Shown piece by piece: positions 36,776 to 43,305 of a DNA stretch of 57,205 bases (the stretch's first letter is position 1; every line of letters starts with the position of its first letter). Below the pieces are notes generated by a model, which searched no databases, had not been told where the DNA came from, and saw only the letters and a program-made list of their open reading frames with translations. The translations under genes and the position numbers were made by a program. This DNA comes from Pseudomonadota bacterium (lineage in GTDB: Bacteria > Desulfobacterota > Desulfobacteria > Desulfobacterales > JBDRRP01): contig JBDRRP010000016.1 of NCBI GenBank assembly GCA_043825735.1, positions 1 to 57,205 on the forward strand, read 5' to 3'.

Positions 36776-38168
36776 GGCCTACCACATCCATTTTGTCGGC
36801 ATCGGGGGGATCGGCATGAGCGGGATCGCCGAGCTCCTGCTGAACCTGGGCTATCACGTGTCGGGATCGGACCTGCAGTCCTCCGACATCACCCGGCGCC
36901 TGGCTGGGCTGGGCGGTCGCATTCATCAGGGGCATGCGGCCGAAAATGTTCAAAAGGCCGACGTTGTGGTCGTCTCTTCGGCCATCGACGCCGACAACCC
37001 CGAGATCGCCGCCGCACTGGCCGCTGCCATCCCGGTCATCCCGCGCGCCGAAATGCTGGCCGAACTCATGCGACTGAAGTACTCCGTCGCCATCGCCGGG
37101 GCGCACGGGAAGACCTCCACCACCTCACTGGTGGCGGGGATCCTGGCTGAAGGCGGTCTCGACCCGACAGTGGTCATCGGAGGTAAGCTTAAAAGCCTGG
37201 GCCGTAACGCCGTTCTGGGTCAGGGCGACTTCATCGTAGCCGAGGCCGATGAAAGCGACGGCAGCTTTCTGAAATATTCCCCGGCCATCGCCGTGGTCAC
37301 CAACATCGACTGTGAGCATCTCGATTTCTATCGGGACCTCGAGCACATCAAAGATACGTTCCTGACCTTTATCGATCGCATTCCCTTCTACGGACTGGCC
37401 ATTTTGTGCCTGGACAACGCATCGGTGCAGGACCTGCTGCCGCGGGTGAAAAAACGCTTCGTGACCTACGGACTCTCCTCCCAGGCAGACTACCGCGCAC
37501 GGAACATAACCTTCAGCGGGCTGCAAAGCGACTTCGAGGTGTCCTTCGGCACAGCGGTCCTGGGCCGCATCCGTCTCAATCTGCCCGGCATACACAATGT
37601 GACCAACGCACTGGCCAGTATCGCTGTCGGCATGGAGCTGGACATCGCGTTCAGCGTCATTAAAAAATCCCTGGAAACCGCCCAAGGCGTCCAGCGCCGG
37701 CTGGAAATCAAAGGCGAGGCCGCAGGCATCACCGTGGTGGACGATTACGGCCACCATCCTACGGAAATCAAGGCAACCCTCCAGGCGGCCCGGGAATCCT
37801 GGCCGGATCGCCGACTGGTGGTCGTGTTTCAACCCCACCGTTACAGCCGCACCCAGGCGCTGTTTGACGACTTCACCCGGAGTTTCTACCAGTCCGACAC
37901 GTTGCTGGTGATGCCTATCTACGCTGCCAGCGAGAAACCGATTCCCGGCGTGGCCGCCGATGCACTGTGTGAAAGCATCCGGTCCCACGGCCACAAGGAC
38001 GTCCACTTTGCGGCCGGCCCTGCGGAGTCGCTCGCGTGTCTCACCCGGAAGCTGACGCCCGGAGACGTGCTGCTGACCTTGGGCGCTGGGGATGTCTACA
38101 AAGTGGGTGAGTCGGTAGTGGAATGGCTGGCTTCGGCGGCGGCGGCCGGAATGGGAAAAACGCCATGA
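36765..38168 (+). CDS. murC: UDP-MurNAc:L-Ala ligase
   Basis: [36 protein letters not shown] and FQPHRYSR motifs. Confidence 0.96.
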
Positions 38169-39037
38169 CGCGCGAGAAGCGACATATCCGGAAAAACACG
38201 AGCAAAACGGCCACGTCGGCACGACAGTTGCGCTGGCGCACCGCAGCCGGCCGCATCCTGACGGTGGTGGCCATCGCCGCAACGCTTCCCACGGTGGCGC
38301 TGGGCTGTATCCTGGCCCACGATCTCATTACCCAGGGGGCGTACACGCGCATTCGCCACACGGAGATTTCCGGAACGCACCGTTTGTCGCACCAGGACAT
38401 CATCCGCCAGGCGGCTATTCCGGAGGCACTCAATCTGCTGGGGGTAAACCTCCGAGTCATCCGCCAGCGCCTCATGGCCCACCCCTGGATTGCGGAGGCG
38501 TCCGTGTCTCGACACTTTCCCGATCGGCTGGTCATACACATCCGCGAGCAGCAGCCGGTAGCCCAGGTGGTGATGGAAGACCAGTGGTACCTGGCCAATG
38601 CCGCCGGTACGTTTTTCATCGCTGGCGAAAACCTGCAGCCCGGTATACCGGTAGTGACGGGCATCACCACCGCCGACCTGGATACCGATGGCCGGCTGCC
38701 CGGGGCCATATGGCAGACGCTCATGACGGCAATACGCTACGACGCCCCGAACGGAAACGGTTCCCGCGGCGCGCTTGAAACGCACATCGCCTATGATCGC
38801 GATATCGGTGTGAGCGTCCTGGCAACGCCGCTGCTGGGCACCATCCATCTCGGCACCCCTCCGGCCGCCGATGCGTTCGTGCTGGCCGAACGCATCGCCG
38901 CCTACCTGTCATTATCGGGCTATGCAACCGGCTTTTCCGCCATCGACATGCGCAATCCCAACCGTATCGTGGTGGCGCCATCGCCAATGGCCGAGCGCCG
39001 GGAGAAGACCCATGAGGAGAACAAAAATGCAGCCTAA
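38165..39037 (+). CDS. ftsQ: Cell division protein FtsQ/DivIB
   Basis: TM plus POTRA domain ([23 protein letters not shown]); C-terminal IDMR; ATGA overlap with murC. Confidence 0.8.
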
Positions 39038-40253
39038 ATCTGAGATCATCGTCGGCCTCGATGTGGGGACAACCAAAATTTGCGCCGTGGTCGGTGAATA
39101 CACCGGCAGTGATATCAACATTATCGGCATCGGCACCCACCCGTCCATCGGCCTGCGCAAGGGCGTGGTGGTCAATATCGAATCAACTGTGGAAAGCATC
39201 AAAAAGGCCGTCGAAGAAGCCGAGCTGATGGCGGGCTGTGAAATCTCATCGGTCTATGCCGGTATCGCCGGTGGGCATATCACCGGATTCAACAGCCGCG
39301 GAATCATTGCCATCAAGGGGCCGGAGATCACCGAGGGCGATGTGGAACGGGTCATTGACGCTGCCCGGGCCGTGGCGATTCCCATGGACCGGGAAGTGAT
39401 CCATGTCCTGCCTCAGGAATTCATTGTCGACGACCAGACCGGCATTCAGAATCCCGTGGGCATGGCGGGGGTACGCCTGGAAGCCAAGATTCACATCGTC
39501 ACGGGCGCGGTCACCTCGGCACACAACATCGTCAAATGCGCCAACCGCTCAGGACTCGATGTCTGTGACATCGTGCTCGAATCGCTGGCCTCCGGAGAGG
39601 CAGTGCTCACCGGCGAGGAACGCGAGTTGGGGACCGCGCTCATCGACCTTGGCGGCGGCACCAGTGATCTGGCGATTTTCTCGGGCAACAACATCCGGCA
39701 CACCTTCGTACTGGCGCTGGGCGGCAACAACATCACCAACGATATCGCCGTGGGACTCAGGGCCCCCATCGCCGAGGCCGAAAAAATCAAGAAAAAATAC
39801 GGTTCCTGCCTCACCGAACGCATCAGCAGCGAGGAAACCGTCGAAGTACCGGGAATGGGAGGGCGCCCCGCCCGGAAACTGCCGCGTCAGATTCTGGGTG
39901 AAATCCTGGAGCCCCGCATGGAGGAGATCTTTACCCTGATCAAACGGGAAATCCACCGGGCCGGCATGGAGAACCTGACATCTTCGGGCGTCGTGCTCAC
40001 CGGGGGGTCATCGCTGCTGGACGGGTGTGTTGAAATCGCCGAATCGGTGTTCAATCTGCCCACCCGCATGGGCGCCCCCCAGGGTATCGGCGGACTGGTG
40101 GACGTGGTCAACAACCCCATGTACGCCACCGGCGTGGGGCTGGTCATGTACGGGGCCAAAAACCAGAGCACCAAGAAGTTCCGCATCCGGGACGTGAACA
40201 TCTTTAACCGGGTGATGTCTCAAATGAAACGATGGTTTAAAGAAGTAATATAG
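39027..40253 (+). CDS. ftsA: Cell division protein FtsA
   Basis: GLDVGTTK, DLGGGTSD, AEKIK and VLTGG motifs; SD GAGGAG. Confidence 0.96.
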   Translation: MQPKSEIIVGLDVGTTKICAVVGEYTGSDINIIGIGTHPSIGLRKGVVVNIESTVESIKKAVEEAELMAGCEISSVYAGIAGGHITGFNSRGIIAIKGPEITEGDVERVIDAARAVAIPMDREVIHVLPQEFIVDDQTGIQNPVGMAGVRLEAKIHIVTGAVTSAHNIVKCANRSGLDVCDIVLESLASGEAVLTGEERELGTALIDLGGGTSDLAIFSGNNIRHTFVLALGGNNITNDIAVGLRAPIAEAEKIKKKYGSCLTERISSEETVEVPGMGGRPARKLPRQILGEILEPRMEEIFTLIKREIHRAGMENLTSSGVVLTGGSSLLDGCVEIAESVFNLPTRMGAPQGIGGLVDVVNNPMYATGVGLVMYGAKNQSTKKFRIRDVNIFNRVMSQMKRWFKEVI

Positions 40254-40341
40254 GAAAGCGGCCATGCAAAGACAGCTCAGCCTTTTTGAGGCGGCAGACG
40301 CTTTGGTGGCTAAAGAACCACAACACGAGGAGGTGGGGGAA

Positions 40342-41514
40342 ATGACATTTACGTTCGTGGAAAACGAGGGATCGGCAAAAATCAAGGTCATTGGCGTCGG
40401 GGGGGCCGGCGGTAACGCAGTGAACAACATGATCGACTCGAACCTGCAGGGGGTTCGGTTCATTGCGGCCAACACCGATTCCCAGGCACTGGAGCGCTCC
40501 AAGGCCGAGGTGAAAATCCAGATCGGCGAGCATCTCACCGAAGGGCTGGGCGCCGGCGCCAACCCGCAGGTCGGCCGGGAGGCGGCCCTGGAAAACCTGG
40601 ACCAGCTCAAATCCATCATCCAGGACAGCCACATGGTCTTTATCACAGCCGGTTTCGGCGGGGGTACCGGCACAGGCGCCGCACCGGTCATCGCCCAATT
40701 GTGCAAAGATCTTGGGATTCTCACCGTAGCGGTCGTTTCCAAGCCGTTCAGCTTTGAGGGGCGAAAGCGACTGCGCCAGGCCGAGGACGGCATCAACCAG
40801 CTCAAAGAAGTCGCCGACACCGTCATCACCATTCCCAACGACCGCCTGCGGGGGCTGGCCTCCAAAAACGCCCGCATGGTGGACATGTTCAAAAAAGCCG
40901 ATGAAATCCTGCTGCACTCGGTGAAGGGGATCTCGGATCTCATCATGATCCCGGGTCTGGTCAACCTGGATTTTGCCGATGTGAAAACCACCATGAGCAA
41001 GGCGGGTCTTGCCATCATGGGCATCGGCATCGCCAGCGGTGAGAACCGGGCTGTCGAGGCTGCCGAGCGGGCCATCTCTCACCCGCTGCTGGAAGATATC
41101 TCCGTAGCCGGCGCTCAGGGCGTGCTCATGAACATCACCTCCACCAGTGACATCACCCTGGAGGAAATGACCGAGGCCTCTGACCGCATCTACCAGGAAG
41201 TCGGCGAGGATGCTGAAATCATCTGGGGACAGACCATCGACGAATCCCTGGGCGATGAGATCCGCGTCACCGTCATCGCCACCGGCATCGGCAATAAAAA
41301 GGCGTCCAAAGCCGAGCCCCGCACCCGCGGCGTCGTGCGCGACATTACCCCTGAGGACCTCCAGGTGGCAACCAACCTGGAAGAGCCGGCCTTCATTCGC
41401 CACAAAGAGGCGGTGGGGGAATCGTCAAGAGCCACTTACCACGGGTTCAAGGGGCTTGTCATCGACGGCGATGATCTGGACGTGCCGACATTTCTTCGCC
41501 GCCAGGCTGATTGA
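40342..41514 (+). CDS. ftsZ: Cell division protein FtsZ (alternative in-frame upstream ATG at 40264)
   Basis: GGGTGTG signature, NLDFAD and C-terminal DVPTFLR; strong SD GAGGAGG before 40342. Confidence 0.97.
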   Translation: MTFTFVENEGSAKIKVIGVGGAGGNAVNNMIDSNLQGVRFIAANTDSQALERSKAEVKIQIGEHLTEGLGAGANPQVGREAALENLDQLKSIIQDSHMVFITAGFGGGTGTGAAPVIAQLCKDLGILTVAVVSKPFSFEGRKRLRQAEDGINQLKEVADTVITIPNDRLRGLASKNARMVDMFKKADEILLHSVKGISDLIMIPGLVNLDFADVKTTMSKAGLAIMGIGIASGENRAVEAAERAISHPLLEDISVAGAQGVLMNITSTSDITLEEMTEASDRIYQEVGEDAEIIWGQTIDESLGDEIRVTVIATGIGNKKASKAEPRTRGVVRDITPEDLQVATNLEEPAFIRHKEAVGESSRATYHGFKGLVIDGDDLDVPTFLRRQAD

Positions 41515-41598
41515 TCGTTTTAAACGGCCGCTGCCCATCACCGTTGGTCGGCGGTGCACGGCGGCGGCCCCGGACCGCTCCATCCGTGAAGGGTGTCC

Positions 41599-43305
41599 AT
41601 GGCCAGGCGTTCTCATCGTGAAACAAGGCCACCATCGCCCGTTGAGCATGGCGCCGTCCGGAAACCGTGGGCGCGATGTCTGCGCATTGCATTGGTCTAT
41701 CCCAATGTCTATCGCCTCGGCATGTCCAACCTTGGTTTCCAGACGGTTTACCGACTGCTTAACGCCATGGAGGGGGTGCTGTGCGAGCGGGTTTTTCTGC
41801 CGGAGCCCTCGGCGGGAATGCCCCTCAGTGTCGAATCGTCACAACCGCTGGACCGGTTTCACGTTGTCGCGTTCAGCATTTCCTTTGAAAATGATTTCCC
41901 CGGGATGCTTCACATCCTGGAGCGTGCAGGCCTCCCCCTGGCGTCGGCGCAACGAGGGTCCCCCCACCCCCTTGTCGTCGCCGGGGGAGTCGCCTGCTGG
42001 CTGAACCCGGAGCCCATCGCCGCGTTTATCGACGTTTTCCTGCTGGGAGAAGCCGAAGTCTTCATCACCGATTTCGTCGCCGCCGTGGACACCACCGCGA
42101 CCCGCAGCGACCTGCTGCTGCGCATCGCACAAACCGTCCCCGGCGCCTACGTGCCTGGATTCTACGAGACGGCCTACCTTCCCCACGGCCCGATCGGTCG
42201 TTTCACACCCACAGCCGACGTTCCTGATCGGATTCGACCGCCGTGGGTTGCCGACCTGAACAATCACCCGACCCGGTCTGCCATTGTCTCCGACCAAAGC
42301 GCCTTCGATGACACCTATCTTGTTGAAATCGGACGGGGCTGCCCCCATGGATGCCGATTCTGCAGCGCAGGCTTTCTCTACCGCCCGCCACGTTTCAGGG
42401 ATACCGGCGTGCTGGCTGAAACCATATCCGCCGGTACGCAATGGACCCGCCGCATCGGGTTGGTGGGCGCGGCGGTCTCTGACCTGCCGGGGCTGGGCGC
42501 CCTGTGTCAATTGCCGTCGCTCTCGGGGCTGCGGCTGTCCTTCAGTTCGCTGCGGGCGGACGCCCTGACGCCGACGTTGATTGACATCCTCCGGAAAAAC
42601 CGTGTCAAGACCGCCACCATCGCCCCGGACGCCGGCAGCGAGCGAATGCGCCGCGTCATCAACAAGGGAATCACCGAGTCTGAGATTCTCACCGCGGCCG
42701 GCGATCTGGTCGCCGGCGGTATCCCCAATCTCAAGCTCTACTTCATGATCGGGCTTCCCACGGAAACCGCCGAAGATGTGACGGCCATCATCGATCTGTG
42801 CGCAAAGATCCGGGAGTGCTGGCTGGCGGCCAGCCGGCGTGTAGGCCACATCGGCACCATCCAGGTCAGCGTCAATAGCTTCGTTCCCAAACCGGTGACA
42901 CCATTTCAGTGGGTCGGAATGGATGACAAAAAAAATCTGAAGCAGAAAATCAAAATGCTGCGAGAAGCGCTGCAGCCCGTGCCCAATGTCCGTTTGAAGG
43001 TGGAAAGCCTGAACGAATCAGTGATCCAGGCCATACTCTCCCGGGGTGATCGTCGTTTGTCTCACGTTTTACGCCGCATCAGCGCCGGCACACCCTGGGC
43101 GTCCGCGTTGAGCGCCGAAGGGCTCGATTCAGACTTCTATGCCACTCGGCAGCGTCCCACCGATGAATTACTGCCATGGCACTTCATCGATCACGGGCTC
43201 AGTTCCGGTTTTTTGCAGCACGAATACACCCGCGCGCTGTCGGCCAAACCCAGCCCCCCCTGCCCCATAGTCAACTGTAGCCGCTGCGGCGTCTGCCCGT
43301 CATAG
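41599..43305 (+). CDS. Radical SAM protein with N-terminal B12-binding-like domain
   Basis: YPNVYRLGMSNLG, EIGRGCPHGCRFC (CxxxCxxC), YFMIGLP and a C-terminal Cys cluster CSRCGVC. Confidence 0.85.
   Translation: MARRSHRETRPPSPVEHGAVRKPWARCLRIALVYPNVYRLGMSNLGFQTVYRLLNAMEGVLCERVFLPEPSAGMPLSVESSQPLDRFHVVAFSISFENDFPGMLHILERAGLPLASAQRGSPHPLVVAGGVACWLNPEPIAAFIDVFLLGEAEVFITDFVAAVDTTATRSDLLLRIAQTVPGAYVPGFYETAYLPHGPIGRFTPTADVPDRIRPPWVADLNNHPTRSAIVSDQSAFDDTYLVEIGRGCPHGCRFCSAGFLYRPPRFRDTGVLAETISAGTQWTRRIGLVGAAVSDLPGLGALCQLPSLSGLRLSFSSLRADALTPTLIDILRKNRVKTATIAPDAGSERMRRVINKGITESEILTAAGDLVAGGIPNLKLYFMIGLPTETAEDVTAIIDLCAKIRECWLAASRRVGHIGTIQVSVNSFVPKPVTPFQWVGMDDKKNLKQKIKMLREALQPVPNVRLKVESLNESVIQAILSRGDRRLSHVLRRISAGTPWASALSAEGLDSDFYATRQRPTDELLPWHFIDHGLSSGFLQHEYTRALSAKPSPPCPIVNCSRCGVCPS

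Follow-up and report, generated by a model that had tools for sequence, protein, structure and literature searches.

Coupling of cell division to chromosome replication in bacteria is only partly understood, and the links that are known are adaptor proteins specific to particular lineages, among them SlmA, Noc, MatP-ZapB and CcrZ. Noc, for instance, is a DNA-bound nucleoid occlusion factor that acts on FtsZ. Hda, whose clamp-binding motif (CBM) is of the six-residue type, acts only where sliding clamps (DnaN) are loaded on DNA and thereby ties a cell-cycle step to ongoing replication. Among five-residue CBMs, QLSLF, QLDLF and QLGLF are high-affinity clamp-binding forms. A 2024 clamp review defines the CBM as Q-phi-x-[L/M]-[F/L] with QLxLF as the high-affinity form, in which Q is critical, position 2 tolerant, position 3 free and L-F the anchor; it cites Dalrymple 2001 for the consensus QL[S/D]LF and lists QLGLF for Pol II and QLNLF for Pol V (PMC11139829). 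CrfC of Escherichia coli is described as a dynamin-like self-assembling GTPase with an N-terminal motif, 41-QLALP, whose oligomers bind several clamps on nascent mid-cell DNA (PMC6374313). Here we describe a candidate CBM at the N-terminus of a putative long form of FtsZ. It is encoded between ftsA and the usual start of ftsZ in a 57,205-nucleotide (nt) contig of a Desulfobacterales bacterium (JBDRRP010000016.1, assembly GCA_043825735.1), called the window below.

In the window, ftsZ stands in the order ftsQ-ftsA-ftsZ of the dcw cluster, and its usual reading (40342..41514, forward strand, as for all window features below) encodes 390 amino acids. This protein (database entry P0001) has the GTPase and C-terminal domains of FtsZ, with precomputed Pfam matches PF00091 and PF12327, and is 66-91% identical to most FtsZ of the order; its named database relatives are Desulfobacterales. 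The frame of ftsZ is closed by a TAA at 40246-40248 and is open from 40249 through the usual ATG at 40342-40344. Within this open part, an ATG at 40264..40266, 10 nt past the stop codon of ftsA, is the proposed start of a long FtsZ of 416 amino acids (40264-41514). The codons that follow it, CAA AGA CAG CTC AGC CTT TTT, encode QRQLSLF, placing the candidate CBM QLSLF at 40273..40287 as residues 4-8 of the long form. An 18-codon linker EAADALVAKEPQHEEVGE (40288..40341), whose 3' part is also the ribosome-binding site of the usual start, completes the 26-residue N-terminal tail MQRQLSLFEAADALVAKEPQHEEVGE. Both coordinates and sequence agree with an earlier sequence-only reading of this DNA, which had pointed out the extension and the clamp-consensus pentapeptide within it. 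The contrast it had drawn between a weak upstream and a strong usual Shine-Dalgarno (SD) site was borne out by duplex energies with a generic anti-SD: -4.2 kcal/mol for AGGA at 40252..40255, 8 nt upstream of ATG 40264, and -13.1 kcal/mol for GAGGAGGTG at 40327..40335, 6 nt before ATG 40342. Since the upstream ribosome-binding site is weak, any long form is probably of low abundance. The position of ATG 40264 so close behind the ftsA stop, which the corresponding ATG overlaps in a second species of the genus, makes initiation coupled to ftsA possible.

The genome that contains the window (G000, 6.8 Mb; the window is its contig C16) was compared with that of the other species of its genus (G001), whose FtsZ is 91% identical to that of the window. 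The ends of ftsA in relatives were located with the last 80-120 residues of FtsA. In G001, the first ATG and the stop codon of ftsA overlap in TAATG, and the in-frame upstream reading is MMADDSNNAIQRQLGLFGNGEASAAVEQQQEEVGE-MTFTY, with the motif stretch QRQLGLF lying within MMADDSNNAIQRQLGLF...EEVGE-MTFTY. The codons for Q-R-Q-L-G-L-F are CAA CGG CAA CTC GGC CTC TTC. Compared with the window, the motif codons thus carry five synonymous changes and a single non-synonymous one, which falls at the free motif position (S/G). In the first 13 codons of the linker, nine residues differ, with 2 synonymous and 14 non-synonymous base changes (Fisher test of 5/1 against 2/14, p=0.0043), and the last 15 nt of the linker, which hold the ribosome-binding site, are identical in both genomes. 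Synonymous sites are well diverged between the two species, as 147 of the 354 ftsZ codons for identical residues differ. When six random substitutions were placed in the 21 nt of the motif stretch, QLxLF was kept in 1.8% of 200,000 trials and at least six of the seven residues in 0.28%. On this codon comparison, what is conserved in the motif is the peptide, and the linker is under no constraint.

Long forms were also found among database proteins. Among the best 120 FtsZ matches, the 21 of at least 400 amino acids were examined; the other 99 are mostly short-form calls (for example P0004 and P0005, with 91-92% identity), seen without their upstream DNA. An N-terminal motif is carried by 6 of the 21. 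P0002, a metagenomic protein with 91% identity, begins MQRQLTLF and has the extension MQRQLTLFGETTALVATEPQHEEVGE-M, and P0003 has an extension identical to that of G001. The metagenomic P0006 (84% identity) begins MQQQLDLF, with MQQQLDLFGKDKPLLVDNPKEEEVGD-M as its extension. In P0009 the motif appears as ..KQMNLF (extension VKREYKQMNLFLPDDGPTTAASHGRTVQEGGD-M), P0013 opens with MSLKQIQLF (MSLKQIQLFSPDLDPTTAASGGRTVQEGGD-M) and P0089 with MQQLRLF (MQQLRLFHMETGNDVTMEKGGE-M). One further protein, P0066, has only a hexamer-like QLLLKL; ten are extended without the motif and four are long for other reasons. In an alignment of seven long forms, the invariant positions of the extension are Q4, L7, F8 and G25, and motif position 3 is S, T, G, D, N, Q or R. 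The Q, the L at position 4 and the final F of the CBM are therefore kept while position 3 varies. A protein search with residues 1-40 of the long form returned P0002 as its sole match.

A five-residue motif will arise now and then in open upstream frames, which are common, and could persist by shared descent; we regard such a chance origin as very unlikely, although the sequence-only reading had allowed for it and a single sequence could be explained in this way. A survey of ftsA-ftsZ spacers across the order drew on 30 loci of relatives, 80 metagenome loci, 80 loci of named genomes and 29 further loci from a sample of 401 genomes of the order, plus 100 short regions cut from the same sample, in which 389 of the 401 genomes had an FtsZ at E<=1e-100. 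In 304 of 320 loci, the match to the N-terminus of FtsZ began no later than query residue 12, and 277 of these loci were distinct; after loci with less than 62% identity or a spacer shorter than 15 nt had been dropped, 270 spacers (26,850 nt) were used. The pattern Q[AVLI]x[LM][FL] had five matches in the frame of ftsZ and two across the remaining five frames, about 0.4 for each of these. The five in-frame matches, namely G000 (QLSLF), G001 (QLGLF), two Delta4-type loci (QIQLF) and G088 (QLRLF), represent three or four lineages, kin not being independent. All five are open through to ftsZ, and an ATG lies 2-12 codons upstream of the motif in each of them and in L022. A looser pattern gave six in-frame matches, adding G034 (QFSLF), against three in other frames.

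Across the whole of the 401 genomes, a pattern of the motif followed after 84-114 nt by codons for G-[VI]-G-G-[AG]-G was found in 14 places, six at ftsZ and eight elsewhere, and a backwards control gave five. At ftsZ, five of the matches are in frame (G000, G001, G096, G088 and G034) and one is out of frame (G173). The chance account is consistent with the many spacers whose in-frame reading stays open over tens of codons and has no motif, with the off-frame matches (QLCLF in L084, QLFML in L258, QFYLF in G173) and with the rarity of the motif, found in 5 of the 401 genomes. It does not account for the in-frame excess, for the synonymous and non-synonymous pattern and the simulations described above, for the persistence of the motif down to 84% FtsZ identity within a clade that has a scrambled linker, or for an ATG just upstream in every case. 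The comparison with relatives thus shows more than chance, and pure chance is unlikely given these controls. By the same comparison, the extension is genuine and is under selection as a peptide.

Several candidates were rejected as instances of the feature. The hexamers QLLLKL in L007 and QLSLIL in L028 belong to a class without in-frame excess, and L028 has no start codon before its motif. NLNLF in L016 and L303 lacks both the Gln and a start codon. QFYLF of G173 (L334) adjoins ftsZ in another frame and behind stop codons; this out-of-frame look-alike provides a natural negative example.

A second alternative is that the spacer is not translated from 40264 and that an RNA or DNA element is conserved in it, stabilising or processing the ftsZ message or masking its ribosome-binding site, with the peptide motif as a by-product. 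We consider this quite unlikely. The hairpin raised by the sequence-only reading exists as GCCUU-UUU-GAGGC at 40280..40292, where its five pairs overlap the L-F codons. It is no more stable than shuffled sequence, however, with a z-score of -0.29 for a 37-nt piece containing it and -0.95 for the whole spacer of G000. In G001 the hairpin has nine pairs, the spacer folds better than shuffled sequence (z-score -2.6, with 2 of 200 shuffles as good), and the change from CTT to CTC converts a U-G pair to C-G. The L-F codons form the 5' arm of the hairpin in both genomes of the genus, which favours an RNA element, as do the weak upstream ribosome-binding sites and a spacer hairpin with compensatory changes in the sister genus. 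On the other hand, the position of the hairpin relative to the motif differs among lineages, lying downstream of it in Delta4, and by eye there is no matching hairpin in G088 or G034, yet Q-phi-x-L-F, the ATG and the open frame are present in both. Nor does an RNA element explain the synonymous swaps AGA/CGG and CAG/CAA, which lie outside the hairpin, or the in-frame excess, the open frame and the ever-present ATG.

The hairpins of the sister genus are CGGAC-TTCG-GTCCG in G096 (L111, about 1430-1445), CGGAC-CACG-GTCCG in G013 (L003) and CCGGGC-TGCG-GCCCGG in G148 (L193). They sit just upstream of the ribosome-binding site of ftsZ, and the sequences suggest a conserved RNA element in the ftsA-ftsZ spacers of that genus.

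Position by position, the peptide bears every sequence hallmark of a clamp-binding motif. It would stand at the very N-terminus of the long form, ahead of a freely evolving linker and the core of FtsZ. DnaN of the same genome is encoded on another contig (371-amino-acid reading). In its peptide pocket, which comprises subsites I and II between domains II and III, residues T175, G177, R179, L180, P247, N325 and M367-R370 are invariant in 33 aligned clamps. The pocket of the E. coli clamp is given as T172, G174-L177, P242, V247, N320, V360 and M362-R365 (PMC11139829). A complex of DnaN and residues 1-40 of the long form was predicted from a DnaN alignment and a seven-row alignment of the extension. 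It scored 0.64, against 0.00 for the best of three controls. Among solved complexes, 116 of 157 reach that mark, as do 2 of 215 mismatched pairs. The runs share at least 55% of their contacts, and the predicted local distance difference test (pLDDT) of the FtsZ partner is 43-44. FtsZ residues 1-8 are predicted to contact DnaN 175, 177-180, 247, 249, 252, 282-285, 323, 325, 351, 365 and 367-371. In the predicted pose, which is the canonical one, Q4 touches DnaN 325 and 369, assigned by offset to subsite II, with L7 and F8 lying against 175-180, 247, 252 and 365-367 (subsite I). Most of the interface residues correspond to the subsite I and II residues of the review, with E. coli numbering mapped by offset (+3, then +5) and conserved residues rather than by explicit alignment. 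The prediction supports binding of residues 1-8 in the canonical DnaN pocket, in the sense of a likeness to known complexes rather than a demonstration that this copy binds.

The genome also encodes two proteins of the Y family with motifs of this kind. A DinB-like polymerase (L337:1459-2661, forward strand) has QASLFD about 45 residues from its C-terminus, and a second, possibly ImuB-like, protein (L338:1360-2661, forward strand) has QQALFAED. Both are likely to be native clamp motifs of this genome, and they match the consensus less well than QLSLFE of FtsZ.

The extension could also be translated and selected while Q-phi-x-L-F serves a purpose other than DnaN binding, such as tuning FtsZ polymerisation, docking a division partner or acting as a degradation or localisation tag. 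Conservation of a peptide shows selection and leaves the partner unnamed, a pass in complex prediction could be a memory effect, and an N-terminal peptide of cyanobacterial FtsZ is reported to affect polymerisation and the interaction with SepF (PMC6175996). This explanation is nevertheless unlikely in our view: the conserved and the variable positions are exactly those of clamp-binding motifs, QLSLF, QLDLF and QLGLF are all high-affinity clamp forms, and the predicted pose puts Q4 at subsite II and L7/F8 at subsite I of DnaN.

The distribution of the motif was examined on a tree of 153 FtsZ rows (FastTree, local support only), from which 601-nt regions, loci shorter than 2.5 kb, rows below 70% identity and duplicates were left out. 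G000, P0002, G001 and P0006 form a clade (support 99) with QLxLF in 4/4 members. Its sister clade (96) contains the Olavius algarvensis Delta4 symbiont group, five rows with Q[IM]xLF (QIQLF or QMNLF), together with G013, G148 and P0007. G088, which belongs to a further family and carries QLRLF, falls within the same 19-row clade (97), and G034 lies elsewhere in the tree. Two Delta4-type loci share one identical stretch, running from the ATG to the end of QIQLF-SP, and differ in the flanks on both sides of it. The spacer is 88-104 nt long in the window clade and 174-177 nt in the Delta4 group, and the linkers are unrelated, indicating either one gain with losses or several gains. With the tag in three or four lineages with unrelated linkers (the window clade, the Delta4 symbionts, G088 and perhaps G034), it may have arisen more than once. 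The sequence-only reading had looked to relatives for a conserved frame and a QLxLF with synonymous changes. This check turned out positive in G001 and in the clade; several close relatives lack the feature. Such a patchy distribution means that the feature is dispensable or was gained several times; as sampled here, only a few lineages have it, most of them uncultured, and their close kin can do without it.

The spacer of G013 (L003) contains a remnant of a Delta4-type linker (..DHGPTTAA..) in another frame, and a stop codon immediately precedes the ribosome-binding site. Judged from the reading frames, it looks like a decayed extension.

Taken together, these results make a long FtsZ isoform that docks on DnaN and links division to replication the best explanation, one that we hold with just over even confidence. 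A number of observations weigh against it. The feature is absent from G002, the only other genome of the GTDB family, which has a long open upstream frame, from G018, from G013 and G148, two of the three sister-genus genomes, and, in the sister clade, from P0007 as well as these two. Its rarity in the order has been given above, and with a stricter pattern, 400 other genomes of the phylum yielded two places, none of them at ftsZ. Hexamer motifs showed no in-frame excess in the spacers (2 in frame, 3 elsewhere). DNA of the window clade is represented by two sequences only, P0002 and P0006 being known as gene-caller proteins. The use of the start at 40264 is something that we infer from the sequence: the upstream starts of carriers have duplex energies of +0.1 to -6.2 kcal/mol, as against -10.8 to -13.3 kcal/mol for the usual starts scored, and the window's own database protein is annotated in the short form, unlike those of its relatives P0002, P0003 and P0006, which are annotated in the long form. 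Finally, the alignments used for the complex prediction were made by us, and clamp-peptide complexes have been solved many times, so that the pass may reflect memory.

If the clamp-docking explanation is correct, ftsZ would have two in-frame starts. Most ribosomes would use ATG 40342 and a minority would start at ATG 40264, possibly by re-initiation after the end of ftsA. The long FtsZ would carry a floppy 26-residue tail that opens with M-QR-QLSLF, and its motif could dock in the peptide pocket of the DnaN rings that remain on DNA just replicated. FtsZ filaments would in this way have some of their subunits tethered to replicating DNA, and the timing or placing of the division ring would become sensitive to replication. 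This cell-cycle role is one that we infer. More specifically, a fraction of FtsZ hooked to DNA-loaded clamps could form a direct link from replisome to divisome, by which the Z ring would read a signal of replication in progress from the clamp; we put this forward tentatively, as a doubtful extension of the idea.

Full-text literature searches, judged by titles and abstract openings, yielded no description of a clamp motif on FtsZ, and the 2024 clamp review does not mention FtsZ at all (PMC11139829). If true, a clamp tag on FtsZ would be the shortest possible link between replication and division, and a core division protein would join the clients of the sliding clamp. The locus also illustrates that the choice of start codon at ftsZ, which gene callers annotate inconsistently, can hide a functional isoform.

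The ORF (open reading frame) of ftsQ (38123-39037) overlaps the long open frame of ftsA (38871-40253). From the ORF list, ftsA itself occupies 39027..40253, with its stop TAG at 40251-40253 and a likely start at about 39027, within roughly the last 11 nt of ftsQ. A scan of 39800-40600 for promoters and terminators found no promoter-like site, and nothing within the spacer. Among the sequencing runs listed, no RNA run contained 39800-40800. Directly downstream of ftsZ, an ORF of 570 amino acids (41593-43305) contains GCPHGCRFCSAG, a CxxxCxxC motif of the kind typical of radical SAM enzymes. The ribosome-binding region of ftsZ (40324-40344, CAGGAGGTGGGGGAAATG, read QEVGE-M) is near-identical across many families of the order, and CAGGAGGTGGGGGAAATG is far better conserved than the remaining ftsA-ftsZ spacer. 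This QEVGE-M element is retained in many families that have a stop codon immediately upstream of it.

Compared with the known clients of the clamp, the window's QLSLF and the QLGLF, QLDLF, QLTLF, QLRLF, QIQLF and QMNLF of its relatives belong to the same sequence class. They share with CBMs the position-wise conservation; the window's motif lies in a terminal, low-confidence and probably disordered segment, and its predicted pose is in the same two-subsite pocket. They differ in that the carrier is FtsZ, that the motif would be on an alternative and probably minor product, and that binding is predicted only. Hda of E. coli is similar as a regulator that is not a polymerase and has its CBM in a disordered N-terminus (PMC11139829); it is a DnaA-related AAA+ protein, however, and regulates initiation rather than division. 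CrfC resembles the proposed long FtsZ as a GTPase that self-assembles and has its clamp-binding motif close to the N-terminus, but it belongs to another protein family, has a role in sister-fork colocalisation and carries its motif constitutively, not on a particular isoform. Hda and CrfC are precedents for an N-terminal clamp motif.

Among FtsZ proteins, those of filamentous cyanobacteria are alike in having a lineage-specific N-terminal extension whose annotation depends on the start codon (PMC6175996). That extension is 20 to more than 80 residues long, is present in the protein at all times and influences both polymerisation and the binding of SepF; no clamp motif is reported for it (PMC6175996). 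SlmA is likewise a DNA-bound factor that acts on FtsZ and makes division respect the chromosome (PMC6374313). SlmA and Noc are separate DNA-binding proteins with specific sites, whereas in the arrangement proposed here FtsZ itself would be tagged and the mark on the DNA would be the replication clamp.

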